A DNA stretch of 64,000 nt from a virus. Its lineage: Duplodnaviria > Heunggongvirae > Uroviricota > Caudoviricetes. The notes under the pieces were generated by a model. The model was not told the DNA's origin and ran no database searches. It saw only the letters and a list, made by a program, of their open reading frames with translations. Location: the IMG/VR virus record IMGVR_UViG_3300001605_000009; one strand, given 5' to 3'. Position 1 is the first letter of the stretch, and each line of letters opens with the position of its first letter. The position numbers were made by a program, and so were the translations under genes. This document shows, piece by piece, positions 4,622-51,189 of this stretch.

Positions 4622-4696
4622 GAAAGTAATCTCCTATAAACAAGTTTAGCCGGAGCAGTACTTAAACTGCTCCGGCTTTCACTTTAAAGAGAAAAC

Positions 4697-5416
4697 TTAA
4701 GCAGCCTTCTCAGCCTTAGCAGCCTTAGCTGCACCATCATAGTCTGAGGCCGTTAGTGCACGACGTGTAAGCATTGTCTTAACACCGCGCTCGGTCTTAT
4801 TGATTGCTTCAGCAATCTGCGCAACAGTTAGTGATGGAACATCAATATCAGCTAGTGGATCAGCTGCTGGACCCTTAAGGTCACGCTGCTTTGGCATCGC
4901 ATCAATTTCACCAGCGCGTTGTAGGCTAAGAGCCTTACCGCGTACTGACTGAATTGACTTACCAACTGCTTCAGCAATATCCTCAACAAAGTTGCCCGCC
5001 TTAATCATCTTAAGTACCTGAGCTTCTTCATCCTGTGAGTAGGTCTTTACAGACTCTACCTTCGCTGCTTCCTTGACATGTCCAGTTAGTTCCATTGAGA
5101 GGATCTTACCCTGAATAGCCTTTGGAGTATAGTCACCTGGGAACTTGTCCGCGATTTCTACATATGTGAACTCGCCGGTATTCTGCGTTACAAAGTGGCG
5201 AAGTTCCTCGGTTACTTCATCAGAGAAGGCACGTGGAGCGGCTGAAGCTAGTTCAACATCATATCCTAGCTTACGTAGCTTTGAGGAAATTGAACGTGTG
5301 CTTGTTTCTAGATCTTCTGCAACAGTCGCAACAGTTGCACGGCTTACCGGACGTTCGTCACCTACGAGGTTAACTAGTTGTGCGGTACGATCTTCGGTCC
5401 ATTTAGGTGTAGTCAT
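4697..5416 (-). CDS. multi-repeat helix-turn-helix protein carrying four copies of the IAExLGKSxRSV/I motif
   Basis: The protein contains repeats such as VAEDLETSTRSISSKLRKLG, IAEAVGKSIQSVRGKALSL and IAEAINKTERGVKTML. The same motif defines a paralog family found across the window. Confidence 0.5.
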   Translation of the reverse strand: MTTPKWTEDRTAQLVNLVGDERPVSRATVATVAEDLETSTRSISSKLRKLGYDVELASAAPRAFSDEVTEELRHFVTQNTGEFTYVEIADKFPGDYTPKAIQGKILSMELTGHVKEAAKVESVKTYSQDEEAQVLKMIKAGNFVEDIAEAVGKSIQSVRGKALSLQRAGEIDAMPKQRDLKGPAADPLADIDVPSLTVAQIAEAINKTERGVKTMLTRRALTASDYDGAAKAAKAEKAA

Positions 5417-11185: not shown

Positions 11186-11351
11186 TTCATTACTAGAGAG
11201 AAGTTCTCATATCGCCTGAGAAACTCTAGCTCACGAGACATAGTTTCCTCAATCATTGGTGAGAATACTGGAAAACTGTATGTAGAACTAATTGGGTTCC
11301 CACGAAGTGGGAAAGTGCTGGTGATAGTTACTTTCATGGTAACTCCTAAAA

Positions 11352-14600: not shown

Positions 14601-17600
14601 TAACCCCAGTAACTGTTCTTCCAGCAATCGTAAGATTGTTAAATACATTGCTACCTCTAATACTATTAACGACTGATTCAGCGGAACCACCTGAGGTAAA
14701 ACTTACATTATAATAGGTTTGTTCGCCTCCATTAAATGATTGACTGGCAGCACTCAAGTTAATCGTTGATGTTCCACTTGATAAAGTAAGACCTGTTGGT
14801 ACCGTAATATCCCACCCACCAGAAGATAAAGTAATAGTTGAAGACCCCAAAGTCAACGATCTGGTATTACTATTACTACTAGAAACAGATCCTGCAGTAA
14901 CATTAAAGTTACTAGTGCTGAACGAGCCGTTAGTTAGCGTTAATGTGTATGTACTTAAATTGATAGCGTCAGCAAGAGTCCACTCTCCGCCAATACCATT
15001 GAATGTAATTGGACACCCCAATGCTTTACCACTAGAAGTGATTATTTTACCGGCAGATGTTGATGCAAATGTTCTCACACCTGCGCCAGCAGTAACAGTC
15101 ATGCCTGTTGATAACGTCAGATTACCGTAGATTGTAATGGCACTATTTGGCCAAGTACCCGCAAAACCAGTAAATACTAGATTTCTTACGTTTCCAGTAA
15201 CAGTAGTAGAGCTTGTTCCTGCGGTGATATTAAACGATACACTGTTAGATTCAGATGGAGAACCCGCGATAATAGTTCTAGCTGTTGCAGTAGCGTTAGT
15301 TACGTTTACAATAGGAGTTCCTGTTACTGTCATATTGTATACGTTTGTAGCATCCCATACTGTACCAGTCCCATTAAGAGTTAAGGAGCCATAATTAAAA
15401 GCTAAGGTTCTTGCGCTGTTTGAATTTGTTATAAAAGCAGGACATGAATGATTATTTCCATTCAAATCTAAATATCCAGCCGCAAGTCTTATAGTACTAG
15501 TAGAAGTAGTACCAGTTGATAACTGACCAGTAAGAGTCCATCGTCCAAACAGTCCATTAAAAACTATAGGGAATCCTAGGGTTTTTCCATTTGGATTAAT
15601 AGTATTACCAGTATATGTTGATAAGAATGAAACAGTATTCGTACCAGCAGCCACTGTCATTCCAGTTGATACAGTAAGACTTCCATAAATTCCTAACGCT
15701 ACATTAGTCCATGAGCCTGCAAATCCAGTGAAGTCTAGGTTTTTTATTCTGTTATTAGCAGTGAACGTAACAGGGCCAGTTCCTGCAGTGATATTAAAGG
15801 AAAAAGCATAATCTTCCGACCATACTCCGGCAGAGATCGTCCTAGTAAGAGATGTAACGGCAGTGACATCTACTCTTCTTAGGCCAGAAGTAGTTAAATT
15901 AGTTACTGTAGCAGTATTCCAAATAGTACCAGTTCCCTCTAGTTTTAAATACCCAGTAGACCCAAACATAATAGACCTAGTATTAGAATTACTAGATGAA
16001 AAGGAATTTAGAGATAAAGAGTACTCATTTAAATCAAGTGTACCATTAGTTAGCGTAAGCGACCCCATTCCTGTATTAGTAACATTTACTTTTATTGTAC
16101 TGTTGTAGGCGTCTATATTAGTAATATTTGTAGGTTGATAGCCTACTAATTGGATTTTATTTACTCCGATATAATTTAAAGTACAGCCGATACCCGCAGA
16201 AACACCCATCATATTATTATTACTTCCACACCAGTAAGTAGTAGTCGTGCCATAGGATAAGGTAAAAAGAGTCGATCTAGCGGTGGTATCATAAGTACCA
16301 ATATACCAATTCTGATCAAGAGTAAGAGTACTCCCAGCACTATTGTCATCCACAATACACGTATCTTGTACTAATGGAAAATTAGCAGCATCTGGGGTGC
16401 CACCAGAAGTCAATGCCCAGCCTGGTGAAGACCAGTTACTAACTCCTGGACGGTTCCAATATACGGTTTTTGGCGCTGCAAATGTGATGAGAGAGTTTCC
16501 TCCTGCGTCACCTAAACTAGTGCCGGACCATGTAGCTGTCCCAGATCCTGTAATGTAGCGAAAGTCTACATTCGAAAGGTCCGTTGAAGCTGCGGTAATA
16601 ACTCTAGGGCTGCCTGTTTGGTTACTTTGTAGTAATGTTCGATTTAGTAGTTCAGTACTAGATACAGTTAATGTACTAGTAATTACTACATCACCACCTA
16701 AATATGTAGGCGTTACTCCTACTGAGTCCCTGGCTGGGATATTTAAATTAATAAAAGTTATGGTAGGAGAAGGACTATTAACTGAACTACCAATACTATA
16801 TCCAAATGTATTTGCAGTAAAATTAACAGTACCAAAACTCTGCCCATCTGGAAGAAAGTTTACAATAGCCGCAGTATGCGTACAATTAATAGTAGATGAA
16901 ATACCACTAAAAGTTAGCTCTGTTGAGTTAAAAGTTATAGGTGACTGCCCATTTAGTGTTACAGTAGAAGTACCTAATGTTATTGATCTAATGTTAGAAT
17001 TACTAGACGAAATACTGCCCGCAGTTACATTATAGTTACCTGTGTCAAACGAACCCTTAGTGACTGTGATTTGATTCGTTCCAATATTCAACGCATCTTG
17101 CAGAGTCCACCCACCACCAACACCATCAAAAGTAGCAGGGCCGTTTAATGTGACGCCATTAGATGTAATGGTCTTACCTGTAGAAGTGGCTGCGAATGTA
17201 AGTGATGTATACGCGGCTACTGTTTGACCAGTTCCAAGAGTCAGGTTTCCATATATAGTACCCGCTGTTGGAATCCATGCTCCACTAAACCCAGTGAAGT
17301 CTAGATTCTTAAAGGTACTCGTGCTGGTTGATACGTTTCCTGTTCCGGCTGTGACATTTACAGATGCTTCAGAGAGTGCACCTGTGGTAATTGTTCTGGC
17401 TGTTGCTGATGAGTTAGTCAGATTGACTGTAGGGAACCCCGATATAGCTATAGAAGAGGTCGTATTGAATACTGTGCCAGTTCCCGATAATGATACAATA
17501 CCCGATGTACCAAAATTTAGTGTTCTAGCAGACAGACCAGTAGAAACGAATAATCCCGTTGTGAGTGTGAAGTTATTCAGGTTTAATGTACCAGAGTTTA

Positions 17601-18600
17601 ACGTGGTAGTTCTAGTCGAACCTACGGTAAACGCATCCTGAAGTGTCCATACACCTGTACCATTAAAGTTAATGGGAAAATCTAATAATTTACCATTGGT
17701 TGTAATTGTTCTACTGACATTTGCAAAAAATGTCCAGGCTCTTGTACCCGCAGTCAGTATCATAGTAGGGGATAATATTAAATTTCCATATATGCTTATA
17801 GCAATATTACTTACAGTACCGCTAAATCCAGTAAAGTTTAAATTGTTCACGCGATTGTCTGCGGTGAAAGTAACAATATCTGTTCCGGCAGTAAAGTTAA
17901 AACTTAATTCAGTAGCATTCGCTCCCGCATTTATAGTTCTTGTCCCAGTAGATCCAGAATAAGTGCAGTTAATTGTCGGTGTTCCAGAAACTTTTAATCC
18001 AGTTTGAGTAGCTGCATCAAAAATAGTTGTACCAGAGCCAGTAAGCGTTAAGTCTCCAGTACCAAAGTTAAATGTTCTCGTAGTAGATCCGGAGATATTG
18101 GCTGTTAACGCGGTAAATTTATTAGTGCCTATCGATAGAGTACCCACCGTAAGGGTAAGTGTACTGCTCGTAGAAAATGCCCCGTTTAGGGTAACTGTAA
18201 TAGAGTTGCCATTTACTACTACAGGACTACTAATTATTGAAGTACCAGTATTACATATAGCAGTGGTACCATTGAAGGATAGTGAGCCTGTGTTTGTCCA
18301 ATTAATAGTTCCAGAAATAGTAAGTCCAGAAGTAGTCACAGATATATTACTTGATCCATTAAAAGTCAAAGTGCCTGCTGATGGGTTTGCCATATTAATA
18401 CCAAGAACTGATGTAGTAGCAGTTCTTGTTACTGTGTAGGATGCTCCAGACCCTGCAACATTAGACTCAGAGTCAAAAATGGCAACATCGGCAGTAGTTG
18501 GAACGGCAGCACCTCCAGTTCCTCCAGATGTAAGTGACCAATTAGTTGTGTTCGTAGCATCCCAGGTACCTGTGCCGCCTACCCAATATTTATTAGCCAT
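11626..18600 (-). CDS. giant repetitive Ser/Thr/Gly/Asn-rich structural protein (2324 residues), likely a tail fibre or adhesin with beta-helix-like modules
   Basis: A single ORF of 2324 residues. The module KTVYWNxxGxxxWSxxGWAxxxGGTPxxxNFPLxQDT occurs four times and the module NL(D/V)FTGF(S/A)G(T/A)W at least five times. Composition is low-complexity beta-rich. The gene lies next to small fibre-like genes. Confidence 0.8.
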   Translation of the reverse strand: MANKYWVGGTGTWDATNTTNWSLTSGGTGGAAVPTTADVAIFDSESNVAGSGASYTVTRTATTSVLGINMANPSAGTLTFNGSSNISVTTSGLTISGTINWTNTGSLSFNGTTAICNTGTSIISSPVVVNGNSITVTLNGAFSTSSTLTLTVGTLSIGTNKFTALTANISGSTTRTFNFGTGDLTLTGSGTTIFDAATQTGLKVSGTPTINCTYSGSTGTRTINAGANATELSFNFTAGTDIVTFTADNRVNNLNFTGFSGTVSNIAISIYGNLILSPTMILTAGTRAWTFFANVSRTITTNGKLLDFPINFNGTGVWTLQDAFTVGSTRTTTLNSGTLNLNNFTLTTGLFVSTGLSARTLNFGTSGIVSLSGTGTVFNTTSSIAISGFPTVNLTNSSATARTITTGALSEASVNVTAGTGNVSTSTSTFKNLDFTGFSGAWIPTAGTIYGNLTLGTGQTVAAYTSLTFAATSTGKTITSNGVTLNGPATFDGVGGGWTLQDALNIGTNQITVTKGSFDTGNYNVTAGSISSSNSNIRSITLGTSTVTLNGQSPITFNSTELTFSGISSTINCTHTAAIVNFLPDGQSFGTVNFTANTFGYSIGSSVNSPSPTITFINLNIPARDSVGVTPTYLGGDVVITSTLTVSSTELLNRTLLQSNQTGSPRVITAASTDLSNVDFRYITGSGTATWSGTSLGDAGGNSLITFAAPKTVYWNRPGVSNWSSPGWALTSGGTPDAANFPLVQDTCIVDDNSAGSTLTLDQNWYIGTYDTTARSTLFTLSYGTTTTYWCGSNNNMMGVSAGIGCTLNYIGVNKIQLVGYQPTNITNIDAYNSTIKVNVTNTGMGSLTLTNGTLDLNEYSLSLNSFSSSNSNTRSIMFGSTGYLKLEGTGTIWNTATVTNLTTSGLRRVDVTAVTSLTRTISAGVWSEDYAFSFNITAGTGPVTFTANNRIKNLDFTGFAGSWTNVALGIYGSLTVSTGMTVAAGTNTVSFLSTYTGNTINPNGKTLGFPIVFNGLFGRWTLTGQLSTGTTSTSTIRLAAGYLDLNGNNHSCPAFITNSNSARTLAFNYGSLTLNGTGTVWDATNVYNMTVTGTPIVNVTNATATARTIIAGSPSESNSVSFNITAGTSSTTVTGNVRNLVFTGFAGTWPNSAITIYGNLTLSTGMTVTAGAGVRTFASTSAGKIITSSGKALGCPITFNGIGGEWTLADAINLSTYTLTLTNGSFSTSNFNVTAGSVSSSNSNTRSLTLGSSTITLSSGGWDITVPTGLTLSSGTSTINLSAASQSFNGGEQTYYNVSFTSGGSAESVVNSIRGSNVFNNLTIAGRTVTGVNYLQFNANQTINGTLNIGAGTGPAYRTWLLSQVFDTQITLTVAAISSLVDVDFRDIVVAGTSGNWSGTRLGDCGNNSNITFESSKTVYWNLTGTVNWSANGWATSSGGTPAVNNFPLAQDTAIFDNTGAATTVTFDGLYNTGTINMSARTTVMTLAFGSSTQFVYSDFILGTGVTPTTLTGQLAFLGYTKTQTLNTAGKSFPIAIASYSPSTTVLLGGAFTSTNAINLVGNLDTSNYSVSATTINASEYATINLNGSTVTLSATGTAWQALSTNTINAGTSTIVLTSTTPTFTGGDKTYYNVTFNNTAINTANITGVNTFNNLNIAGRTGSVGISQVIFGGGNQTVNGTLTIGAGTSAIYRTFLQSNTQGTARTITANAISALTDVDFRDITAAGAAGTWTGIRLGDCGNNTNITTSTPKTVYWNLLGNSLWTATAWATTAAGTPAVANFPLAQDTATFTNTGVASTLTINANWNIGTLNYSSRTTASTLAIGTTSPDIYGNVTLYSGLTITGTGVVTFNKSGATQTITSAGVTWPTGINVYNTNSGTTKLGSALTCSGTVSIYTGTLDLNGFTATVSSLQPAVSASIYDFPAIAFGSSAINITGNNGTILYMEVSGGNFNYTGIPTVNLTYSGSTGTRTIFAPGMTETTCFDINITAGSDIISFSTGGVPSIRNYNDTGFTGTYNMASKVNIYGNMTNNSAVLTGFVNFLATSGTKTLTINTTSNACGAFLTFNCPGAIYQLGSAINLAYYSYGATLNTTGGMILKAGTFNANGYDVTVPEFSSSYTSSRALIMGSGNWTIVPYNLTYLQYLIDVSAYSALIPIFGWDISDPTNLTLDKGTANIICTTYSIPVEYQFYGGDQTYNNFTVTPSSTTLQRSTLSIYGNNTFDTMSNTVKPTTIKFEGGSTQTFSSFNISGDSSSLVTITSTNTTPAILKKSTAWNVGANSTNGGNNTGLSFTGTSPNYLSISYITGSIIGAIKKLGAFLAFF

Positions 18601-25003: not shown

Positions 25004-25397
25004 GGTACTTTTCCTTATTATCAGAAGAGAAATAAATACGCTCTTCTTCTTCAGAGAGAGGTCTACTCATTGGAGTATTCTTCTCGTCCCTCCAACACAG
25101 ATGGTTGGTATTCTCAAAAGGTATAAGCCAAGGTGTCATTAATTTCTCCGTGTAAGTGCGGCGGGTTCTGTTTCTAGGTTCCGCCAGACCCAAGAAGAAT
25201 CAAGCTACTAGAGCTAGACCTTCAAATGCTGAGTTATCGTTAGCATTTACTTTTTGTGGCTCTTTGCCAGTCAATAGTCTCGGCGTTCCCTATTACACGA
25301 AAATCGATCCCTGGTCGCCCCCATCATAGAATATCGGACTGTGTAGGTACCAATACACGAGACACTGATAAACGGTCAGGCTCTTCCCAATATTCTA

Positions 25398-25425
25398 TGG
25401 TGGAGGCGGCGGGAATTGAACCCGC
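25398..25425 (-). ncRNA. tRNA/tmRNA 3'-end-like element (T-arm, acceptor 3' strand and CCA) with no matching 5' half
   Basis: The minus strand reads GACGCGGG-TTCAATT-CCCGCCGCCTCCACCA. This matches the 3' end of bacterial tmRNA and tRNA closely. No complementary GGAGGCG was found within plausible distance. Confidence 0.4.
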
Positions 25426-25454
25426 GTCTTTTCGTCTTTATTGTCGGCTGTCAG

Positions 25455-25497
25455 CGACTATATACTCGTTATAACAAAAGTTACAACAAAAGTCAAG
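25455..25497 (-). promoter_or_regulatory. sigma70 promoter (TTGACT, 17-nt spacer, TATAAC) firing into the tRNA/tmRNA-like fragment
   Basis: The minus strand reads aaaaatatttcTTGACTtttgttgtaacttttgtTATAAC, about 45 nt upstream of the fragment. Confidence 0.5.
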
Positions 25498-25732
25498 AAA
25501 TATTTTTCAAGCGTTCGGCCTTAGCACGAAGATGCTCAGCTGGGGACATTCCGTAGTCCTGATGGTTAACAGAAATATTCGCTAGTACAAATCCAAGGTC
25601 TTTTCGCTCCTGATAGAACTGCTCACGCATCTTTCGCTTACGCTCTAGCTTCTGCTCACGAGTTTCTAGATTTGGGAAGTTGACTTGTCCGTTGGACTTT
25701 TGCTTCTGTACGACCTGTTCTGCTTCCTGCAC
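25493..25732 (-). CDS. hypothetical basic protein
   Basis: ORF with the promoter at 25830-25870 upstream. Confidence 0.4.
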   Translation of the reverse strand: MQEAEQVVQKQKSNGQVNFPNLETREQKLERKRKMREQFYQERKDLGFVLANISVNHQDYGMSPAEHLRAKAERLKNIS

Positions 25733-32606: not shown

Positions 32607-32844
32607 AGCTCCAGTGCCTGAGCTGGTTCAAAGCCTTCTGATAGGTAAGCCTCATATAGCGTTCTTCGGCAGTACGCGATATCCGAAGAGAACTCAGCTA
32701 GGTGCATGTAACTCCCTACGAGTACAGGAATAAGCTGGTCGGCGCCAAGTAAATTTTCATCCATAAATAACTCTTACTTCTTTTATTGAAGCTCTTGTTG
32801 AAGACATATTCTTTATACTACAAAATTAGCTTGGTGTCAAGCAC

Positions 32845-32880
32845 TAAAAAAGGGTCGGTAATCACGAAGACTACCGACCC
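32845..32880 (-). terminator. rho-independent terminator (minus strand) that also supplies the UP/-35 region of a downstream promoter
   Basis: GGGTCGGTA-loop-TACCGACCC followed by TTTTTTAGTGCTTGACA, then a 17-nt spacer and TATAAA. Confidence 0.65.
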
Positions 32881-33348
32881 TTATGTTGCTGGTTACGTTT
32901 ACCAGACTGTGCGTCTTTCCGAACAGTCACTATAGCACTTTGTGTTAACGACGGCGACTTTAGCAACCTACGCTGAATAGCAAAGCCTACTCAGAGCTAC
33001 ATTTGAATAACCGAGTGAATGCTCTCGGCCCTAGCTTATAGTAGAAGGGCAACCGCCAGTAGTTAGCTGGGCTTAAGACTTTATGGGGTAACTACGTCCA
33101 TAGAATCCGGGATTCACACTATCCCTGAGTGGCTCTTAGCGGTCCCCATACGGTGAACCTTTTGCATATCCATACTGGCATTGCCAACAGGGCTAAGTTA
33201 TAACACTCCTGCACTAGCTTGTAGTGCGCCGGAGTGTTAAAGTGGAAAGCAGTCTTTAGGCCTTCCTCATTACCTCTTCCGAGGCCTAGGGTCATGGCAC
33301 GCCCACCTAAAGTTCCATGATGAAGGCTACTGCCTACTGCTTATCTTG

Positions 33349-33422
33349 TGGTGCGGACGGAGAGTATCGAACTCTCGACTACTGGGTGGAAGCCAGTCAC
33401 GTTACCATTACGCCACGCCCGC
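33349..33422 (-). tRNA. tRNA-Gly (UCC)
   Basis: The acceptor strands GCGGGCG and CGTCCGC pair with one G-U. Anticodon loop CTTCCAC; T-arm GAGAG-TTCGATA-CTCTC. Confidence 0.75.
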
Positions 33423-33661
33423 ATTAATCCATTCTCTAACGTCGTCAGACGTGATACTAAACTTGTGATACTTCTTGAGCATAGACACTACTCTAGGTAC
33501 AATATAAGAGTATAGAACTACTCTATCCTTGACCTTGTTCTCTACAGTCAGATAAGGTTTACCTGCTATATAGGCTCTTGCTAGAAAGGTTGCTCTGTTC
33601 TCGTTTCCAACATCCCACCTACGATGGGCTGCAGTTGCTTATCGGCCACACCTAAGTTAAC

Positions 33662-33746
33662 TGGTGGGTAGTGTAGGGTTCGAACCTACCGTGCCTTTCG
33701 ACTCTGGGTTTACAATCCAGGACGCGTCCACTCGCGCATACTACCC
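33662..33746 (-). tRNA. tRNA-Tyr (GUA), type II
   Basis: An 85-nt gene with acceptor strands GGGTAGT and ACTACCC, anticodon loop TTGTAAA, a long variable arm, and T-arm GTAGG-TTCGAAC-CCTAC. Confidence 0.7.
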
Positions 33747-34118
33747 AATTATTTCTCTGCCGCTTTTCATCGTTATTAGTTTATTCGTGAACTCATTCCA
33801 TGTTTTAGCCCAAGGCCCACGAAAAGTCAAGACATATGTTTGACCATGCGAATCCACTTTGTGAAAATCTTCTCTAGTAGTAATGAAGGGAATCAAGCTA
33901 GGTTTATATTCACGAACGCTACCGTCGAGCATAGTCTCGGTCAGCTTTCCTTTTAGGACCCAACTAAAGCAGTTGAATGCATGATTGTGAAAAGCTTCAC
34001 GGCTACGACCGTCAAATTTTAGTATAAGAGCCGAGAATAAGCGCCTAGACTCAATAAGCCAGTAACCTGTTACTGTGCTTTCTGGTCCGCCGTCTTTCAT
34101 TTTCTTAAGGAGCTTCAT
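33741..34118 (-). CDS. hypothetical protein
   Basis: ORF only. Confidence 0.35.
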   Translation of the reverse strand: MKLLKKMKDGGPESTVTGYWLIESRRLFSALILKFDGRSREAFHNHAFNCFSWVLKGKLTETMLDGSVREYKPSLIPFITTREDFHKVDSHGQTYVLTFRGPWAKTWNEFTNKLITMKSGREIIG

Positions 34119-35187: not shown

Positions 35188-35269
35188 TGGAGTCGGCGAC
35201 AGGATTCGAACCTGCATTTTCAATCCAGTTACCTTTCTCTCCGTTCGTAGCGGAGGGGGTTACGCCGAC
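35188..35269 (-). tRNA. atypical tRNA-like gene, 82 nt; the anticodon arm may read ACG (Arg) but the D-arm is irregular
   Basis: The acceptor strands GTCGGCG and CGCCGAC pair perfectly, the T-arm is GCAGG-TTCGAAT-CCTGT, and the 3' end is CCA. The internal arms CTCCG-CTACGAA-CGGAG do not fit a standard cloverleaf. Confidence 0.4.
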
Positions 35270-35278
35270 AATATTATT

Positions 35279-35944
35279 TTACCAGTTGGGTACTTTGTTA
35301 GATTTCTTTAGATTTTCTTCTACGGTTAAATACTGTAGGTTATTCTCTACATGTAGTCCACAACTATTTTTAGCGTTAAGAGGGTATATATGATCTACAT
35401 GATACCCTTCTGGACACTCATTATATATTTCTTTTAGCTTCTTAATATCTGCCCATGGAGCTAGGGCTTGTTTTAGTTGGGCCCTTCTTCTGGCATTCTT
35501 TTCTCTACCATGTATTTTCCAGTATTCCTGATGATACTCTTTATTATTTTGATAATTATTCTTATTATATGAAGATTTACAATCTGTGCAGTACCTGTCT
35601 ATACCGTCATGCTCTAGGGCAGATTTAGTGAAAGTCTCTCTTAAAGAGAATTCACTACATCCGGAGCACTTCTTGTAGTCTGACTGTCTTACTAGCCAGG
35701 ATACCCAGGTACCCTCCCCTCCTTGTAGCTTTACCTCAGGAAATAGCCTCTTAACTAATCTATTAAAGGTCTGTTCAGACCTACCAAGACTTTTTATAGC
35801 TTTTGGACCTGTTCCATAAGTAAATAGGGCGTCTACCACTTCTCCAAAACAAATAGGTGGTTTTTCACCTCTTTTGTTAATGACTATAGTGTACTGCCCT
35901 ATGTTTAGGTTTTTATAAATTGATTCTTTTACTTTCTGTTCCAT
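35279..35944 (-). CDS. HNH homing endonuclease, inserted within the tRNA cluster
   Basis: HNH motif GYHVDHIYPLNAKNSCGLHVENNLQYLTVEENLKKSNK. N-terminal DNA-binding region. The promoter at 35953-35997 lies upstream. Confidence 0.75.
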   Translation of the reverse strand: MEQKVKESIYKNLNIGQYTIVINKRGEKPPICFGEVVDALFTYGTGPKAIKSLGRSEQTFNRLVKRLFPEVKLQGGEGTWVSWLVRQSDYKKCSGCSEFSLRETFTKSALEHDGIDRYCTDCKSSYNKNNYQNNKEYHQEYWKIHGREKNARRRAQLKQALAPWADIKKLKEIYNECPEGYHVDHIYPLNAKNSCGLHVENNLQYLTVEENLKKSNKVPNW

Positions 35945-36156: not shown

Positions 36157-36232
36157 TGGTACCTGATGACGGTCCTGCCCCGCCGACCTGAGTCTTGTAA
36201 GGACCCCGCTCTACTAACTGAGCTAATCAGGC
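36157..36232 (-). tRNA. tRNA-Val (UAC) with a non-canonical T-loop
   Basis: The whole gene aligns with canonical bacterial tRNA-Val except that the T-loop reads GGCAGGA instead of the canonical TTCGATC. The anticodon loop is CTTACAA. Confidence 0.5.
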
Positions 36233-41528: not shown

Positions 41529-42014
41529 TCATTGTGGACCACAAGGGTCAACAATGATTTGGTGGAATCCCTCATCTAATGTGGGCGGCTGATAGTTACG
41601 ATCCATCTGCCTAAGAATATGCTCTGGAATCCGTTTATCAGGCCTGCTAGCAAGTCGTTCTGCCCAATTATCAGGAATTGGAAAAACAACTGCCGTAAAC
41701 TTATGGTTTGGCAATGCCTTAAACAACCGTGCGCGACTCTTTACTGTTAAGTTTGTACGATCAATGTAAACATCTTCGTTACACCCTTCTAGAAGTTCCC
41801 AAAAATGTGCCTCTGCTTTCTTGATGTATTCTGGGAACACATTATTATATGTTTGTCCTCTAAGCTTAGCAAATAACTCGATAAAATCATCACTAGAAGC
41901 TACAAAGATATTATCTGGTCGGCTGGCAAGCCACGTAGACTTGCCAACTCCAGGAAGACCCACTAAAACATACGCATTAGGCATTATAAATAACTCCTGG
42001 AAACCATTCTGCAC
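41529..42014 (-). CDS. P-loop polynucleotide kinase-like protein (kinase domain of T4 Pnk-type)
   Basis: Walker A motif GLPGVGKST. The gene is small and sits next to the RNA ligase genes. Confidence 0.6.
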   Translation of the reverse strand: MQNGFQELFIMPNAYVLVGLPGVGKSTWLASRPDNIFVASSDDFIELFAKLRGQTYNNVFPEYIKKAEAHFWELLEGCNEDVYIDRTNLTVKSRARLFKALPNHKFTAVVFPIPDNWAERLASRPDKRIPEHILRQMDRNYQPPTLDEGFHQIIVDPCGPQ

Positions 42015-43191
42015 GGATTTCTTCGTACTTACTAGTCTTAGCTAGATTCTTGCGAATAGTATTATAAATTTTTTGCTCACAAACACTAACGGCATCTACG
42101 TACAGAACCTCGTCCCACATAGCAAACGCTATAGATCTATTAAGCCCACTCATTTTATTCGCATATGTGGTCGCGAAAGTCTTCCGATCCATACCACCGA
42201 TACGCCGACAGTTAGATACTTGTGAAACAATAGAGAGTGCCAAAGGATGAATAACTTTATTAAAGTCATTCTCGAACTGAGAAAGACGATCACGCTCTTC
42301 TTGTGGAAGATGCGCTTTCACGTCGTCTAGCTTTTGATCTAGAATAAGTTCAACAATGTGGCGATCCTGTAGAATACGCTCCTTAGCCTTGTGAATCTGC
42401 ACGTACCAGTCACACTTTAGCTTTACCATGTGTCCGTTGTCAAAACGCACAACGAAGCCTTCAGTGTCCTGAAGATCACGAGTGTGCTCAATAAGACCGT
42501 TGATGTGCTCCTGGGACGGGAAGGATTTCACAATTGGGATATTATACTTCTCGATAATAGGATAGTTATTATGAAGGTTGATAATATAACTACCGCGCTC
42601 CATATTACGAATAGCTGTAAGAATCAGACGATCCTCTGGATAGTCTAGAACGATGCGCTGCTTACGTGAGCACCACTCAAAAATAGGAGTAAACCCATTC
42701 TCGATAAGATCACGAGAGAAGTCAATGTAGTGTGGATTGTTATTCACAAACTCCTCAACAGGCTTCGCCACATCAGTAGCACCCATCTTAGTACCGAATA
42801 CTAGAACAGCACGATTAAAGAATGGGGCAATCATTGATCCATCCAGTTTATCCAGAATGATGTGATCCTCATACAGAGGAACATTCTCGGTCTCTGGTCG
42901 TTCGTTTACGTTGAAGAACTTGTGATAAGGACGGCGAAGAATATCGCCCGTTTCGTTGTCAAAGATAATACCCCGACATTCACGACGAGTAGCAGCGTGC
43001 TTAGCATCCGTAAAAGCTAGCTTGTTAAGCTGCTCGCTCCACTCAATCACAGGCGGAAAAGTATCCTCAAACATCACATTGTAGTTGATAACGGTATAAC
43101 CGTCTTTAACAGCCACTACAAATTCACTACGACCTTCAATCGCAGGAAGCACATCACTGATGTTACGAATTACTGGGAATTGATAGTTCAT
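41977..43191 (-). CDS. RNA ligase 1 (T4 RnlA-like)
   Basis: ECRGIIFDNETGDILRRPYHKFFNVNERPET aligns with the T4 Rnl1 segment [34 protein letters not shown]. The nucleotidyltransferase lysine motif DKLDGSM is present. Confidence 0.75.
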   Translation of the reverse strand: MNYQFPVIRNISDVLPAIEGRSEFVVAVKDGYTVINYNVMFEDTFPPVIEWSEQLNKLAFTDAKHAATRRECRGIIFDNETGDILRRPYHKFFNVNERPETENVPLYEDHIILDKLDGSMIAPFFNRAVLVFGTKMGATDVAKPVEEFVNNNPHYIDFSRDLIENGFTPIFEWCSRKQRIVLDYPEDRLILTAIRNMERGSYIINLHNNYPIIEKYNIPIVKSFPSQEHINGLIEHTRDLQDTEGFVVRFDNGHMVKLKCDWYVQIHKAKERILQDRHIVELILDQKLDDVKAHLPQEERDRLSQFENDFNKVIHPLALSIVSQVSNCRRIGGMDRKTFATTYANKMSGLNRSIAFAMWDEVLYVDAVSVCEQKIYNTIRKNLAKTSKYEEIRAEWFPGVIYNA

Positions 43192-43262: not shown

Positions 43263-43531
43263 ATTCTTTTGTATCGCTGTCGTAACGTAGAAATGACTAT
43301 TTCCCATAGAAACCAAGCACCAAATCCGCCAAATAAGACGTAGGCAGCTAGTGTCTCTCCTAAAAGGTATTCTATACCTAGTTCTACTCCAATTGATAGT
43401 CCACCGACTACTACCACAATAGCTAAAGTTCCTGCTAGAGCCACTCCTAGTAAGATAAAGAAGTCTTTACTTGGAGTAAGTGTCTTTTGTAATGCTTTCC
43501 AATTCATTCTGGCCCACTCCCGTTGCCCCAA
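43244..43531 (-). CDS. small membrane protein
   Basis: Two hydrophobic helices. Confidence 0.4.
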   Translation of the reverse strand: MGQREWARMNWKALQKTLTPSKDFFILLGVALAGTLAIVVVVGGLSIGVELGIEYLLGETLAAYVLFGGFGAWFLWEIVISTLRQRYKRISQGQK

Positions 43532-44160
43532 GCCTTGACAGGCCCAACATATCCTACTACTTCCCAGCGATCCTTAATACGAGCTTCTACTTCGTCGAAG
43601 GACAGAGGCTCGTAGTTAGTGTGCTCTACAGATACACAGAGATAACGCGGGTCAGGAACAGATACTGACTTATATTCACTAGGGTGGGAACTATGGTAAT
43701 CGCTCCAGCCTTTGGATACCATTTTATGCCTAGTCTGCATTACTTCATTGGCATGAAGGTGCCCATGCACGTTAACCTTAAATCGGTCAGTTACGCAGTC
43801 TGGATGCAGCGGAATATGGCTAAGAATAAACTTATCCACAAACACACGAACACCATACATCTTTTCAAAGCCAACTTCCCGATAGTACTTATCATGAAAA
43901 ATATCATGATTACCGCGTACTAGACGCTTCTTACCATTAAGACGTTTTACTAGCTCTAGTGAAGGCTTCTTGATGACAACATCACCAAGATGGTAGACGG
44001 TGTCCTGCGGGCTTACTTTAGCATTCCAACGCTCGATCATGGCCTCGTCCATTTCTTCGTTAGAAGAGAACGGACGTAGAGGATCCCCATTGGGAAGCTT
44101 AAACTTCTGCCACGAATTAGTGTGCCCGAAATGGGTATCACTTATAACAAAGCTGCTCAT
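43504..44160 (-). CDS. calcineurin-like metallophosphoesterase (candidate RNA 2',3'-cyclic phosphodiesterase or 3'-phosphatase in the RNA-repair cluster)
   Basis: Phosphoesterase motifs DTHFGH, GDVV, GNHD and HGHLH. Confidence 0.65.
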   Translation of the reverse strand: MSSFVISDTHFGHTNSWQKFKLPNGDPLRPFSSNEEMDEAMIERWNAKVSPQDTVYHLGDVVIKKPSLELVKRLNGKKRLVRGNHDIFHDKYYREVGFEKMYGVRVFVDKFILSHIPLHPDCVTDRFKVNVHGHLHANEVMQTRHKMVSKGWSDYHSSHPSEYKSVSVPDPRYLCVSVEHTNYEPLSFDEVEARIKDRWEVVGYVGPVKAWGNGSGPE

Positions 44161-44383: not shown

Positions 44384-44556
44384 GAGCAAGTATCTGGCAT
44401 ATCATAACCCGCAGAATACTTAGGGGCTATCCCATTGTCTGACCCCTGCCAGTATGCTACACCATCTATGCATATAATTTCATATTTAGGTTTAGGGGTT
44501 GGCTCACTGCAACCCGAGAGTAGACCTAGACATAGAATAATTACTGGATATTTCAT
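44380..44556 (-). CDS. small lipoprotein (58 residues, lipobox LLSGC)
   Basis: MKYPVIILCLGLLSGCSEPTPKPKY... It is below the 60-residue ORF cutoff of the track. Its ATG overlaps the Rnl2-like stop as ATGA. Confidence 0.45.
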   Translation of the reverse strand: MKYPVIILCLGLLSGCSEPTPKPKYEIICIDGVAYWQGSDNGIAPKYSAGYDMPDTCS

Positions 44557-45569
44557 GAATTAATCCTTTTAATAAACCAAGGGCGAGCCTTGTTAGCAAT
44601 TGGTCCACCAAGCTTCTTAGGATCAAACCCAGAGGCTACAATAGTATCGGTTTCTTCCTTTACAACATCGTTGTAGACCCAACGAATGAAGTCACCCATT
44701 GAAGTCATATCTAGGGGCTTTAGTTGCTCACGAACTAGGTTATCAACACCCTGTTCTAGACGTTGCTCGGTAACTGTAGTGTCAACGAAGTCCTTGAGAG
44801 CTTGAACGGCTTCAACGTCTACAGCAGCTAGAGTCTTAACCTTAGATGCTGAGTGCTTTTCACCCTTTACCTTGAAACGAAGACCTTCCCAACCTGGTGT
44901 AACGCAGGTCCAAACAACACCTTCTCCGACACCAGATACACCGAAAGCCTTGCCCACAGGGCATTCGTTTTCGACGGCTTCTGTGATTTCGATCATGCGG
45001 TTCTGTGCTAGTTCAGGATGTGCGAAGTCAATGTCAAGCTCCCACATTGGAAACTCCTCAATGTCACGAACACCTGGAATATCAGTAAACTCAGTTTCTC
45101 CAGATAGAGGGTCACTCCAGAGCTCTGTACCGTCTTGTTCAATAAACTTCACTGCGAAGATGACAAACATCTTAGGCAGTTCACTAACAGCCACACCACG
45201 TTGAATGCCTTGTCCACACCACTCACCGTATACGGCAATCTTGCGCACACTTGGGTGGCTCATAGTACCAAAGAATTCTAGCCACTTTTTCTCGTACTTC
45301 ATCTGTGCTAGCATGAAGCCAGCGTTATCCTGAGTAAGACTTAGCACCCGTTCACGAGACTGATAAGAAAGTTCTTGTGAAACATAATCGTACACTACAG
45401 CTGCGTTTGTACCGTGAAGCTTCACAGTACCATGAAACTTCAGAGTTGGAAGCTCCCGTGTATGGTCATAGATTGGCTGGCCTGTATCATCCTTACCGAC
45501 ATAGCGGTGTGACGCCTTCACATGATGAATGACGTTGCGAAACTGCTCGATTGATGGAAACTTAATCAT
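44553..45569 (-). CDS. RNA ligase 2-like nucleotidyltransferase (start corrected to an internal ATG with a ribosome-binding site)
   Basis: KLHGTN matches the KxHGTN lysine motif of T4 Rnl2. The promoter at 45578-45640 and the ribosome-binding site taaggagat place the start at 45569 rather than 45752. Confidence 0.65.
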   Translation of the reverse strand: MIKFPSIEQFRNVIHHVKASHRYVGKDDTGQPIYDHTRELPTLKFHGTVKLHGTNAAVVYDYVSQELSYQSRERVLSLTQDNAGFMLAQMKYEKKWLEFFGTMSHPSVRKIAVYGEWCGQGIQRGVAVSELPKMFVIFAVKFIEQDGTELWSDPLSGETEFTDIPGVRDIEEFPMWELDIDFAHPELAQNRMIEITEAVENECPVGKAFGVSGVGEGVVWTCVTPGWEGLRFKVKGEKHSASKVKTLAAVDVEAVQALKDFVDTTVTEQRLEQGVDNLVREQLKPLDMTSMGDFIRWVYNDVVKEETDTIVASGFDPKKLGGPIANKARPWFIKRINS

Positions 45570-45577
45570 TCTTATCT

Positions 45578-45640
45578 CCTTAACAAAACAAATATAGCCC
45601 ATCAACCGAGAAAAGTCAAGGGCTATTGAAAGGCTTGGTC
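45578..45640 (-). promoter_or_regulatory. sigma70 promoter with TTGACT, a 17-nt spacer and TATATT
   Basis: The minus strand reads caatagcccTTGACTtttctcggttgatgggcTATATT. Confidence 0.55.
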
Positions 45641-45775
45641 CATAAAGTCGTAATATGCCTGTGTAATCAAAAGTGATTAGTGTATAATCATCTGACATGA
45701 AGGCATACTCGTTTATCTCGTCTGCGTAGCACCTAGGTTCCGTCCGGTCCATACGTAAATATCATCCGGCATTGT

Positions 45776-47115: not shown

Positions 47116-48492
47116 TTACTTGATTTCAGCGCGTTTTCGAATGTCCTCGAAAGTTTGCTGCTTAGGGACTTCTCCGTCTACAAAGACTACTCGAAGATAG
47201 TCACCTACTGTTTCATAGTCGTCTTCATGATTACTTACTGTAAAGTACTCGTTGTAGAATGTTTTACCTAACTTCAGCAAGCCCCGCTTAGAGCGCTTAC
47301 CACTATCAGTGACTGGATCTTTATAAACATCAACCCATTTGCCGTTGATCTTAGCAGCTGAGCACTTCATGGCGAATTTAAAATCGTCTCGATTAACGAT
47401 CTGAAGAAGCGCGCCGCCCTGACCAAAGACTACGTTATCAGCACTGAAGTCGTGTGCTGCTAGATTGTCTAGAATAGCACGAATAGAGTCGATGTTGATA
47501 CCGTCACCCTGCAATACGCGAACGTTATTAAGAACCTTAAAGCCCTTTTCGTTTACAGTGTAGCCGAAGTATTCTGCTAGAATGCTTACGCAGTCTAGTA
47601 CTACTTTCTTTGGCTCTCCAGAGTCCGGACGAACAACAAGAGTAGCGCCGCTGTCTAGAACATCCTGCTTTAGTACTGTACCCCACAGCTTGCAGGCTTC
47701 ATAGATATTGTAGCTGTCTGAAACAGCGGATACAATACCACCTGGCTTACCATTCTTCTTAACCATGTTACGGTACGCGTCAACTTCGTTTTCGCGACCC
47801 CAACTGGTTACAGTGCTATGTTCCATAGCGGGAACACTGAACCCAGCCATATCAGCACCATAGTGGCGACGAGCAAAGAGCAGAGCTTCAATAGTGTCAG
47901 TACCCATGAAGTTGACAAGATGCGCTGCTCCGCCAATTCCAGCCGACTCAAGCGAGCTAACACCGCGAGAACCAAAGTCATGAAGCTTAAAGCTAATATC
48001 AGCAGGAGTTCCAGTGCGAACGAGAGCATCTAGAATGACCTTCTTAATTTCGCGGCTATTGGTAGCCACAGTTGTAGGATACCAGATCGCTCGAAGAAGC
48101 GCGGTTTCTAGGAACGACGTCAACCACCAGCAATTTGGATCAGTATTCTCAATAGTGGCGAGCACGTTATGAGTTGGCACGACAGTGCCCTCATGTACAG
48201 CTGTGATAAGAACAGGAAGACGACCGTCATGCTCACGAACAATGTACTCCCAACCCTCACGGTTGAAAGGCTCACCATGTGCTAGAATGATGGCTTCCGC
48301 TTCATCAATCATTTCCATAGTGATAGGTTCCATCAAGTATTCTTGAATGAATGCCTGAAGACCAAAGAACACAGTTTCGTCGTACTTGCCACCACGGCTT
48401 TCGATGTAGCTATATACGATTTCAGTACCTTCGGGGTACTGGTTAAATTGGCTGTATTTGTAGCTATCGCTGTTTAGGATAATGTTTTTCAT
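47116..48492 (-). CDS. nadV: nicotinamide phosphoribosyltransferase (NadV/NAMPT)
   Basis: A 458-residue protein with an NAMPT-like N-terminus (LNSDSYKYSQFNQYP) and overall family architecture. Confidence 0.8.
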   Translation of the reverse strand: MKNIILNSDSYKYSQFNQYPEGTEIVYSYIESRGGKYDETVFFGLQAFIQEYLMEPITMEMIDEAEAIILAHGEPFNREGWEYIVREHDGRLPVLITAVHEGTVVPTHNVLATIENTDPNCWWLTSFLETALLRAIWYPTTVATNSREIKKVILDALVRTGTPADISFKLHDFGSRGVSSLESAGIGGAAHLVNFMGTDTIEALLFARRHYGADMAGFSVPAMEHSTVTSWGRENEVDAYRNMVKKNGKPGGIVSAVSDSYNIYEACKLWGTVLKQDVLDSGATLVVRPDSGEPKKVVLDCVSILAEYFGYTVNEKGFKVLNNVRVLQGDGINIDSIRAILDNLAAHDFSADNVVFGQGGALLQIVNRDDFKFAMKCSAAKINGKWVDVYKDPVTDSGKRSKRGLLKLGKTFYNEYFTVSNHEDDYETVGDYLRVVFVDGEVPKQQTFEDIRKRAEIK

Positions 48493-49959: not shown

Positions 49960-50144
49960 CTCCTAATAATTGCTTGATGACCACAATTAGGGCAGTCTAC
50001 CCACTCGTGTCCATCAGGACCGCCACTGTAGTCCCTACCACGGTACTCTTTCACTTCACAGAGCTTGTACTCTAGAATAGAAGCACATCCGCGACAGGTA
50101 ATCCGCTTCACAGCTGACTCGTCTCGTCCTACAACTTTAACCAT
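49953..50144 (-). CDS. zinc-ribbon protein
   Basis: CRGC...CPNCGH motif. Confidence 0.4.
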   Translation of the reverse strand: MVKVVGRDESAVKRITCRGCASILEYKLCEVKEYRGRDYSGGPDGHEWVDCPNCGHQAIIRSW

Positions 50145-51189
50145 TTAGTAGTTCCTTAATGATATGATAATGATCGTCGAACATAACACTTTCATCTAGC
50201 TCAGAGATATTAATCCAGCCAGCTGAGACAGCATCATCTGCGCCAACCACATCAGGTCGTTTACCCATCCAGCTAATATCAAAGTAAAAACAGTGACTTA
50301 CAGTATGTCCCATAGTTGAGCGACCTGGATGATCGGCAATGAACAGCTTTGGCTTCCCACTAAGTAGTAGGTCATCCTTAGTAAGTTGCAAACCAGTTTC
50401 TTCAAGCAGCTCACGAAGTGAGCCAGCTAGTGTGCGCTCGCCCGCATTAAGATGGCCCCCAGGAAGAGCTAGAAGCCCCTTACCGGGGTGTTTTCCACGC
50501 TCTACAAGCAGAATCTGGTCGTTATATCGAACCACAGCATCTACAGTGATCTGCTTAACAGGATACGGGGAAGAAGACCACAACTCTGTGTTTATATCAA
50601 TTTCTGTCTGCCAATCAGACATGTAGTTGATAAAACCTAGCTCAGAGTTAGTAATTACGTCTACTGTGCTCCATGGGAGGTTATCTAGCTGTAGCGAAAA
50701 GTCTCGGAAGAGTTCTTCACGAATATCAGTGGCATTCAGCGGGGCATCAATAGCCCACTCTACTAGATCATAGTTTGGGAACATATCAAGGTAGTAGCTA
50801 GACTCGTCCTTACGGGCACCGATGATGCCAATCTTGAGGTCAGCAGTACCATTGTTGTGAAATCCATCAGGATTGGCAACGTCTAGTGCTGTGAACTTGA
50901 TAGCTTCTCTTACTTCGGCAGCCCATGCACTATCATCATAGGGCTGGTCCCGAATAGCGTCTGTATATAGATTTGTGCCTTCAGGATAAGAAGCTAGAAT
51001 CATATCAGAGCGCTCTTCATAGGTCCATGGATTCTTTGGAGTACGCGCACCACCAGAACTTCCAATAAGAACTAGGACGTTCTTGGCTTTGGTAAAAGCA
51101 TGGTCGATCACACTCTTGTGACCCTTATGAAACGGCTGAAAGCGTCCGATGTATACTAGAAGGTCGTACATTATTATCTCCTTATGCAC
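50137..51189 (-). CDS. bifunctional NMN adenylyltransferase and Nudix ADP-ribose pyrophosphatase (NadM-Nudix, NatV-like)
   Basis: Nucleotidyltransferase motif GRFQPFHKGH at the N-terminus and Nudix box GGHLNAGERTLAGSLRELLEETG at the C-terminus. Confidence 0.85.
   Translation of the reverse strand: MHKEIIMYDLLVYIGRFQPFHKGHKSVIDHAFTKAKNVLVLIGSSGGARTPKNPWTYEERSDMILASYPEGTNLYTDAIRDQPYDDSAWAAEVREAIKFTALDVANPDGFHNNGTADLKIGIIGARKDESSYYLDMFPNYDLVEWAIDAPLNATDIREELFRDFSLQLDNLPWSTVDVITNSELGFINYMSDWQTEIDINTELWSSSPYPVKQITVDAVVRYNDQILLVERGKHPGKGLLALPGGHLNAGERTLAGSLRELLEETGLQLTKDDLLLSGKPKLFIADHPGRSTMGHTVSHCFYFDISWMGKRPDVVGADDAVSAGWINISELDESVMFDDHYHIIKELLNG

Follow-up and report, generated by a model that had tools for sequence, protein, structure and literature searches.

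In a 64,000-nt stretch of the IMG/VR virus record IMGVR_UViG_3300001605_000009 (Caudoviricetes), here called the window at its full length, about 470 nt on the minus strand between a tRNA-Gly gene and an intrinsic terminator (32882-33348) are best read, from sequence comparison, as a folded non-coding RNA organized around a three-way junction. The junction is a compact RNA family that matches no Rfam 15 family. Two of its helices vary in sequence and covary, and the third is a nearly invariant hairpin. We put the probability that the junction RNA is a structured, trans-acting RNA that binds a protein at roughly 0.55. Loci and contigs from IMG/VR and other collections are given L-numbers; L007 and L092 are one contig, L138 is Mesorhizobium phage Cp1R7A-A1 (MT188704), L139 is Brevundimonas phage Marchewka (ON529851), and L134 is a locus of Pseudaminobacter soli.

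Structure and covariation of the three-way junction

The core of the junction comprises 63 nt on the minus strand (33135-33197) and three helices. P1 pairs 33197-33192 with 33140-33135 (CUUAGC/GCUAAG), the P2 hairpin (33191-33170) begins directly after it, the joining strand J2/3 (33169-33161) reads AUAUGCAAA, and P3, a 20-nt hairpin of the sequence AGGUUCACCGUAUGGGGACC (33160-33141), abuts the 3′ strand of P1. The features that define membership in the family, i.e., P1, P2 directly following it and P3 abutting the P1 3′ strand, are all present in the window copy. Folded in isolation, the 63 nt adopt exactly P1, P2 and P3 as the minimum free energy structure. A covariance model (R1) built from an alignment of nine small elements (A3), from which the window was excluded, recovers the window junction over its full length (28.2 bits, E = 1e-4, 33135-33197 on the minus strand) and also finds the copies in L092, L120, L117, L098, L135 and L091.

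Pairing in P1 is kept with different sequences in about 20 distinct members, for example CUUAGC/GCUAAG, UCUGGC/GCCAGA, UGCGGC/GCCGCA, UUCCCG/CGGGAA, GCGCCG/CGGCGU and CUGCC/GGCAG. A separate script detected pairing between the bases immediately following GGGGACC and others 20-45 nt upstream of the hairpin, again with another sequence in nearly every lineage. In alignment A4, which was fitted to the R1 model, 96% of the cells are paired and all ten P1 and P2 pairs changed on both sides; its covariation score of 0.252 compares with 0.059 in shuffles (0 of 500 reach the observed value) and at most 0.053 with slid partners.

Across more than 45 loci, P3 hardly varies and is as such too invariant for a covariation test. 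It is kept across GC-poor and GC-rich genomes in which the rest of the sequence is unalignable, and the P3 pattern has one exact match in the window and none in shuffles. Its few variants affect the fourth loop base, change U-A to U-G (Marchewka and L141/L147/L149) or replace one G by A (Rhodobacter phage RcXuper); the U-G pairs are compatible with the tRNA strand alone. Three candidate members, L095 and both copies in L136, were set aside, as they appear to lie in coding sequence, and the match in L133 may be due to chance. Likenesses of the motif to the P4 helix of RNase P, a type I-F CRISPR repeat, the loop of the 23S GTPase centre (GUAAUAG) and the sarcin-ricin loop, all noticed by eye, were short and unsupported and were dropped.

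Borders, coding content and fold of the segment

Directly upstream of the segment lies tRNA-Gly(UCC) (33349-33422, minus strand; called by ARAGORN, Rfam tRNA 65.6 bits). The RNA ends in an intrinsic terminator (32846-32882, minus strand) with a stem of 14 pairs (32882-32850) followed by TTTTTT, as strong as the sequence-only reading had described it. That reading had also noted that no open reading frame (ORF) of 60 or more amino acids (aa) lies between tRNA-Gly and the terminator, and this holds true: the longest frames have 58 aa (33119-33295, minus strand) and 49 aa (32786-32935, plus strand). A scan of the minus strand found neither promoter-like nor further terminator-like sites inside the segment, so that read-through from tRNA-Gly is the simplest way in which it would be transcribed. 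We therefore infer that the segment is the 3′ trailer of tRNA-Gly, on the same transcript.

The GC content of the segment (0.48-0.52) exceeds that of its flanks (approximately 0.35-0.45). The segment as a whole folds more stably than shuffles, on the minus strand (z = -2.97) as well as on the plus strand (z = -4.62); since both strands surpass their shuffles, fold stability alone neither proves an RNA nor selects a strand. Within the segment, z-scores are mostly non-significant (junction, -1.39; 5′ module, +0.12; hairpins Ha-Hc, +0.63), and the case therefore rests on covariation instead of stability.

A small protein encoded by the 58-aa frame, or a decayed gene or spacer without any RNA function, would be an alternative explanation. 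An AGGUGG motif stands 7 nt ahead of the ATG of this frame (33295-33119), and the adjoining gap upstream of tRNA-Gly does hold a decayed gene. However, the ATG becomes AAG in L117, and indels among the relatives in alignment A1 are not multiples of three, so that the segment lacks the conserved frame and start codon expected of a protein-coding feature. In addition, compensatory changes occur in many helices, and the P3 block is kept in 60-nt elements that are unable to code. Both the start codon that is not kept and the 60-nt form, too short to code, argue for a non-coding element, and we consider the absence of an RNA function extremely unlikely.

Relatives and modular make-up of the segment

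Conservation of the segment in L092/L007, L120 and L117 is patchy (nhmmer E = 3e-8 to 2.5e-11), with a 25-nt block that is nearly identical amid otherwise diverged sequence. Neighbouring proteins used as anchors yielded 90 IMG/VR loci, among which L007, found via a 57-aa protein encoded just beyond the terminator, was the only one with a homologue (nhmmer E = 3e-8). The six loci obtained with a 125-aa neighbour protein lack the RNA, a 107-aa neighbour protein gave none, and none of the 80 contigs reached via an SPFH protein contains it according to nhmmer and the covariance model. Alignment of the window with L007 shows islands of near-identity in diverged sequence, the strongest being CAAAAGGUUCACCGUAnGGGGACCGC, and visible compensatory changes. 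Scanning the collections with this block added L120 and L117, which belong to the same phage group as judged by synteny, along with many unrelated loci. In L092, tRNA-Gly(UCC) is again located directly 5′ of the homologous RNA (2377-2448, Rfam tRNA 31.8 bits). The junction, the 3′ helices and the 5′ module all show compensatory base changes; the conservation and covariation in relatives on which the sequence-only reading had made its RNA candidate depend thus exist in L092/L007, L120 and L117.

The 5′ module, or module 1 (33242-33330, minus strand), has a branched fold with the closing helix CUUUAGGU/GCCUAAAG. Its only homologue is L117:11046-11138 (nhmmer E = 1.5e-6); a scan of IMG/VR with a 19-base pattern returned no further copies. 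The consensus fold of these two sequences has 18 pairs, including an 8-pair closing helix that contains the three pairs with compensatory changes. In L117, a tRNA (11216-11286, Rfam 49.3 bits; 77% identical to the tRNA-Met of L092) is situated between module 1 and the junction. Because an Rfam-confirmed tRNA splits module 1 from the remainder there, module 1 is probably a separate RNA and the segment would yield at least two RNAs; the plural used in the sequence-only reading is thus probably right.

Between module 1 and the junction is a stable hairpin, AACACUCC-GGCGCACUACAAGCUAGUGCA-GGAGUGUU (33202-33238, minus strand; -18 kcal/mol, z = -4.55, 0 of 200 shuffles as stable). Its stem had been singled out from the sequence beforehand and is real, but it is specific to the window: alignment A1 does not keep it, and the relatives have other structures at this position.

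The 3′ extension (32889-33134, minus strand) was compared with L092, L120 and L117 in alignments A1, A5 and A6. It contains the conserved hairpins Ha (33125-33109, GGGAU..AUCCC), Hb (33103-33081, loop GUAGUUAC) and Hc (33070-33056, CCAG-CUAACUA-CUGG), and then, after a variable stretch, Hd (32928-32905, GACUG-UUCGGAAAGACGCA-CAGUC) and He (32905-32889, CUGGU-AAACGUA-ACCAG), all on the minus strand. Four or five of these hairpins are common to the window and the three relatives; their stems covary, and the loops AGnGU, GUnGKUAC, CUAACYA, GGAAAGAC and AACGU are conserved. For the last 95 nt, the consensus fold has 28 pairs, nine of them changed on both sides (z = -5.08). The loop and closing pairs of the terminator (CUUCGUGAU) are kept in L092 and L120, and its stem covaries. 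With three or four sequences in comparison, the covariation of the 3′ extension is suggestive, not statistical.

Three genomic architectures of the junction

The junction occurs in three architectures. In architecture A, an element of approximately 60 nt with the layout UCCCG-P2-GGGUAAU-P3-CGGGA resides in phage tRNA arrays. In L108, L114, L116 and L111, this small form begins 3-6 nt past the 3′ (CCA) end of a tRNA; in the Rhodobacter phage RcXuper, it lies unannotated between tRNA-Asn and tRNA-Cys. Architecture B is a small RNA (sRNA) of about 90 nt that is flanked by a promoter of its own and a long terminator and is found in Sulfitobacter, Tateyamaria and Paracoccus (Rhodobacteraceae), in prophages and in metagenome contigs. 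In 10 of 12 loci this sRNA form is convergent with a gene encoding a DUF3800 protein (PF12686, E = 9.6e-9), and in L132 the pair of sRNA and DUF3800 gene is inserted between the head and tail genes of a prophage.

The proximity of the small form to tRNA ends could be explained by a purely cis-acting role in processing. P1 stacked on P3 would then mimic the minihelix of acceptor stem and T-arm and be cleaved by RNase P (or RNase E/Z), which would define the 3′ trailer of the upstream tRNA and protect transcript ends. The placement within tRNA arrays, the distance of only 3-6 nt from the CCA end in several loci and the direct contact of P3 with the P1 3′ strand without a spacer, as the T-arm abuts the acceptor stem, are consistent with this idea. 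On the other hand, the P3 loop ACCGUAUGG is unlike a T-loop, and neither ARAGORN nor the Rfam tRNA models see the element. Furthermore, the sRNA form is not adjacent to a tRNA and is preceded by a promoter of its own, the window junction is 150 nt away from the tRNA, and 20 invariant bases are more than a structural signal would require. This makes a mere processing signal unlikely.

Architecture C comprises larger RNAs in which the junction is joined to a lineage-specific extension. The window belongs here together with L092, L120 and L117. A second pair is formed by the Mesorhizobium phage Cp1R7A-A1 (L138 2400-2800) and Pseudaminobacter soli (L134 3172-3526), which have an RNA of approximately 380 nt in common (nhmmer E = 7e-43). 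The region in Cp1R7A-A1 contains an annotated hypothetical coding sequence of 44 aa (2602-2733), which may be spurious. In Brevundimonas phage Marchewka, about 600 unannotated nt (~2040-2665) extend from a consensus promoter to a strong terminator and contain a P3 variant, which suggests another large RNA built on the P3 hairpin. By eye, this stretch has the short blocks GGUAAAGUAG and GAAGAGAUGCGGGA in common with L094, and a weaker one with L093. Finally, in high-GC contigs the junction is located upstream of an ORF resembling an HNH endonuclease (seen by eye in L094, common to L091 and L098). The family has therefore three cultured carriers, RcXuper (host Rhodobacter capsulatus), Cp1R7A-A1 (Mesorhizobium loti) and Marchewka (Brevundimonas pondensis), and in their GenBank records the element falls into unannotated gaps.

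In five loci, a GOLLD RNA is found in the same tRNA cluster as the junction, within a few kb: L092 1099-1546 (Rfam 217.6 bits), L117 10368-10816 (215.1 bits), L101 2510-2947 (201.4 bits), L143 2958-3395 (194.9 bits) and L138, i.e., Cp1R7A-A1, 4313-4775 (193.5 bits), the last of which is not annotated as RNA in GenBank and has a tRNA-Leu nested inside. Hence, GOLLD and the junction RNA occupy the same niche. Two of the junction-bearing loci also contain tRNAs with a CUA anticodon (L092 1834-1908 and L118 3149-3224); ARAGORN labels them tRNA-Pyl, and they are likely amber suppressors.

This niche raises the question of whether the RNA of approximately 350 nt works as RNA only, in the manner of GOLLD and ROOL, for example as a multimeric particle in which the junction would be one structural domain. 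Such an ornate RNA would fit the common location in tRNA clusters of large phages, the GOLLD copies within a few kb of the junction in these five loci and the RNAs of 380-600 nt that carry the junction between promoter and terminator in Cp1R7A-A1/L134 and Marchewka. It agrees less well with a common part of only about 60 nt, with extensions that are unrelated between lineages, with 60-nt and 90-nt forms that stand alone and with the missing match to the GOLLD and ROOL models. We regard this explanation as quite unlikely.

Comparison with known RNA classes

Searches of Rfam 15 against the window and at least 30 related loci gave no match to the region or the motif. The comparison with Rfam by Infernal, which the sequence-only reading had recommended, yielded no Rfam 15 family for the segment even at E values up to 10; between 32700 and 33800, cmscan reported at this cutoff only tRNAs and chance matches to miRNA and sRNA models. 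GOLLD (RF02032), for which at least 150 bits were the criterion, was absent from the window both at the gathering score and at E up to 0.05, and the models of ROOL, raiA, OLE and HEARO did not match 32700-33800 (cmscan, E up to 10). Within 32882-33348, ARAGORN and the Rfam tRNA clan call no tRNA or tRNA-like structure, and the loop of P3 is not a T-loop.

Compactness, a three-way junction and highly conserved nucleotides are typical features of self-cleaving ribozymes and riboswitches. No Rfam model of either kind matches the region at E up to 10, though, and the conserved bases are concentrated in a hairpin and not in the junction strands. Moreover, the terminator follows directly after the RNA, no downstream gene is on the same transcript, and the elements are not located in 5′ untranslated regions (UTRs), an argument also made for other RNA motifs (PMC5737381). 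A ribozyme or riboswitch is accordingly very unlikely.

Like GOLLD (RF02032) and ROOL, the RNA is located in or beside phage tRNA clusters, is probably co-transcribed with tRNAs, and is large with multiple helices in the window. It differs from them in having no sequence or structure match and a conserved unit of about 60 nt as opposed to 400-800 nt. In phage T4, species 1 and 2 (rnaC, rnaD) are non-tRNA RNAs of the tRNA cluster that share transcription and processing with the tRNAs. What the junction RNA has in common with them is only the genomic setting; it belongs to other phage groups with other hosts, Alphaproteobacteria in the case of the cultured carriers. GOLLD and ROOL form RNA-only multimers (PMC12286853).

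The closest resemblance of the sRNA form is to the RNAs associated with DUF3800. This domain, for which an RNase H fold is predicted (PMC10910872), occurs together with 11 unrelated RNA motifs that are highly conserved and in several cases carry a terminator, and the DUF3800-I, drum and skipping-rope RNAs do not lie in 5′ UTRs, are followed by terminators and show no self-cleavage (PMC5737381). Like the motifs DUF3800-I to -XI, drum and skipping-rope, the ~90-nt sRNA form is short, has many invariant nucleotides and ends in an intrinsic terminator, and like the DUF3800 motifs, which occur in either orientation, it adjoins a DUF3800 gene outside 5′ UTRs (PMC5737381). In contrast to these motifs, neither the window copy nor any of those in phage tRNA arrays has a DUF3800 gene in its vicinity. 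The Rfam 15 models of DUF3800, drum and skipping-rope RNAs match none of the window, L097, L129 and L100, with the completeness of the eleven motifs in Rfam being uncertain. We did not find the motif sequence in the literature, a comparison that extended neither to the supplementary alignments of PMC5737381 nor to the IMG/VR catalogue of 10,006 candidate RNAs (PMC10690425); the junction may therefore have been listed before under an uncharacterized label.

A trans-acting, protein-binding RNA as the favoured reading

The combination of scaffold helices that are free to covary with a frozen P3 hairpin points to sequence-specific recognition in trans, most simply by a protein. According to this reading, the 3′ part of the tRNA-Gly transcript would fold into a probably stable non-coding RNA, which is likely cleaved into two or more pieces, module 1 and an RNA of about 350 nt from the junction to the terminator. 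The junction would be the functional heart, with P1 and P2 serving only as a scaffold and P3 as the place where a protein docks in a sequence-specific manner, and the RNA would act in trans rather than on a neighbouring gene. DUF3800 genes, with which the sRNA form is convergent, are the only partner genes to recur, and this family is therefore the leading candidate for the protein. The phage has the RNA without the protein; its RNA could target a DUF3800-type protein of the host or a prophage as a decoy, or P3 might be read by another conserved factor.

Several observations weigh against this interpretation. No DUF3800 homologue was detected in the window or in any phage-type locus (tblastn and a subfamily hidden Markov model), nor by tblastn in 50,697 GenBank phages, in searches that used one DUF3800 subfamily, and the partner in phage infections may thus be another protein. 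Clustering of the ORFs within 5 kb revealed no protein family common to all junction contexts. The RNA is dispensable and not essential to the phage group, being absent from the 80 contigs with the SPFH protein. The invariance of P3 is partly built in, as members were fished with P3-based patterns and the relaxed scan freed only four positions, and the fitting of A4 to the R1 model has to be considered as well, with P1 having been found separately by the independent script. Finally, only three relatives have the large form, two of which (L092 and L120) are close, and covariation events in the 3′ extension are correspondingly few.

A more specific version of the favoured reading assigns the phage RNA the role of a decoy or antidote. 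The phage copy would mimic the sRNA partner of DUF3800 and titrate the RNase H-like protein, or supply an inhibitory RNA, and so disarm a DUF3800-based exclusion system. Phage pseudo-ToxI RNAs act in this way against type III toxin-antitoxin systems. The junction RNA resembles these and the RNA anti-CRISPRs in concept only, as the phage version of a structured RNA whose bacterial counterpart comes with a protein gene; unlike them, it has no repeat array. The same junction accompanies DUF3800 in chromosomes and prophages (in L132 between head and tail genes) and stands without DUF3800 in tRNA arrays of lytic-type phages, which speaks for a decoy. The source phage also possesses other genes with presumed counter-defence functions (RNA ligases, a phosphoesterase, NAMPT, NMNAT-Nudix, ~17 tRNAs and a tmRNA). 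Yet no defence role is known for DUF3800, and the DUF3800 protein of the sRNA loci matches neither PADLOC nor PHROGs. The loci linked to DUF3800 are, moreover, close relatives of each other, so that the association was observed in few independent instances. We consider the decoy unlikely at present.

The adjoining gap and the phage background

The gap between tRNA-Gly and tRNA-Tyr (33423-33661) had been described as likewise ORF-free, which turned out to be incorrect. It contains an open frame of 76 codons (33408-33638, minus strand), the first canonical start of which is codon 50 and the stop of which overlaps the 5′ end of tRNA-Gly. Over 72 aa, the frame shares 61% identity with the C-terminal portion of an ORF of 122 aa that occupies this position in L092 (tblastn E = 4e-36), and the DNA is also conserved in L045, L068, L069, L072 and L118. 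This looks like the remnant of a protein gene whose 5′ part has been lost at the site now occupied by tRNA-Tyr, and the gap was rejected as an RNA candidate for this reason. The tRNA-Tyr itself (33662-33746) is an ARAGORN call with an Rfam score of 24.7 bits, which is under the threshold.

The source phage is large and uncultivated, with nearly all genes on the minus strand. DNA searches of 50,697 GenBank phages revealed no close relative, including for the 20-kb neighbourhood, and the 1-kb region around the segment matched them at tRNAs only. Replication genes in the window encode a DNA polymerase A, a DnaB-type helicase, a primase, an NAD-dependent ligase and ThyX. A cassette resembling RNA repair genes consists of a T4 Rnl1-like RNA ligase (41977-43191), a phosphoesterase (43504-44160) and a second RNA ligase (44553-45752), adjoined by an NAD salvage pair of NAMPT (47116-48492) and NMNAT-Nudix (50137-51189), all on the minus strand. 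RNA repair and NAD salvage genes of phages are usually interpreted as countering defences that cleave tRNAs or deplete NAD.

About 17 tRNAs and one transfer-messenger RNA (tmRNA) were identified in the window by ARAGORN and Rfam. The tmRNA (25157-25500, minus strand) is of the permuted, two-piece alphaproteobacterial type with the tag peptide ANDNSAFEGLALVA, and similar tmRNAs are present in the related loci L114, L120 and L128. Since the cultured carriers of the junction all infect Alphaproteobacteria and the tmRNA is of the corresponding two-piece type, an alphaproteobacterial host is pointed to for the source phage.

Two tRNA-like genes, at 36160-36232 and 35191-35269 on the minus strand (Rfam 45.3 and 31.1 bits), are not called by ARAGORN. 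A gene resembling HNH endonucleases or endonuclease VII within the tRNA cluster (35279-35944, minus strand) is likely a homing endonuclease, and the mosaic state of the region may be due in part to it. A scan located two perfect (12/12) sigma-70 consensus promoters (TTGACA-17-TATAAT) at 32582-32554 and 32048-32020 on the minus strand; a near-consensus one (TTGACA-17-TATAAA, ~32838-32808, minus strand), spotted by eye, lies directly past the terminator of the RNA. Each of the three has a short ORF just downstream. An ORF of 2324 aa (11626-18600, minus strand) has no match in Pfam or PHROGs.

Implications for phage tRNA clusters and DUF3800

It has long been known that phage tRNA clusters give rise to extra stable RNAs, such as species 1 and 2 of T4, GOLLD and ROOL. 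The junction family links two puzzles, the stable RNAs of these clusters and the orphan RNAs beside DUF3800, and with three cultured phage-host pairs carrying the family, its function is directly testable. If the decoy interpretation is true, phages of Alphaproteobacteria would express a copied sRNA partner of DUF3800 from their tRNA arrays and thereby neutralize that system, which would open a first way into the function of DUF3800 and of the dozen orphan RNA motifs around it.

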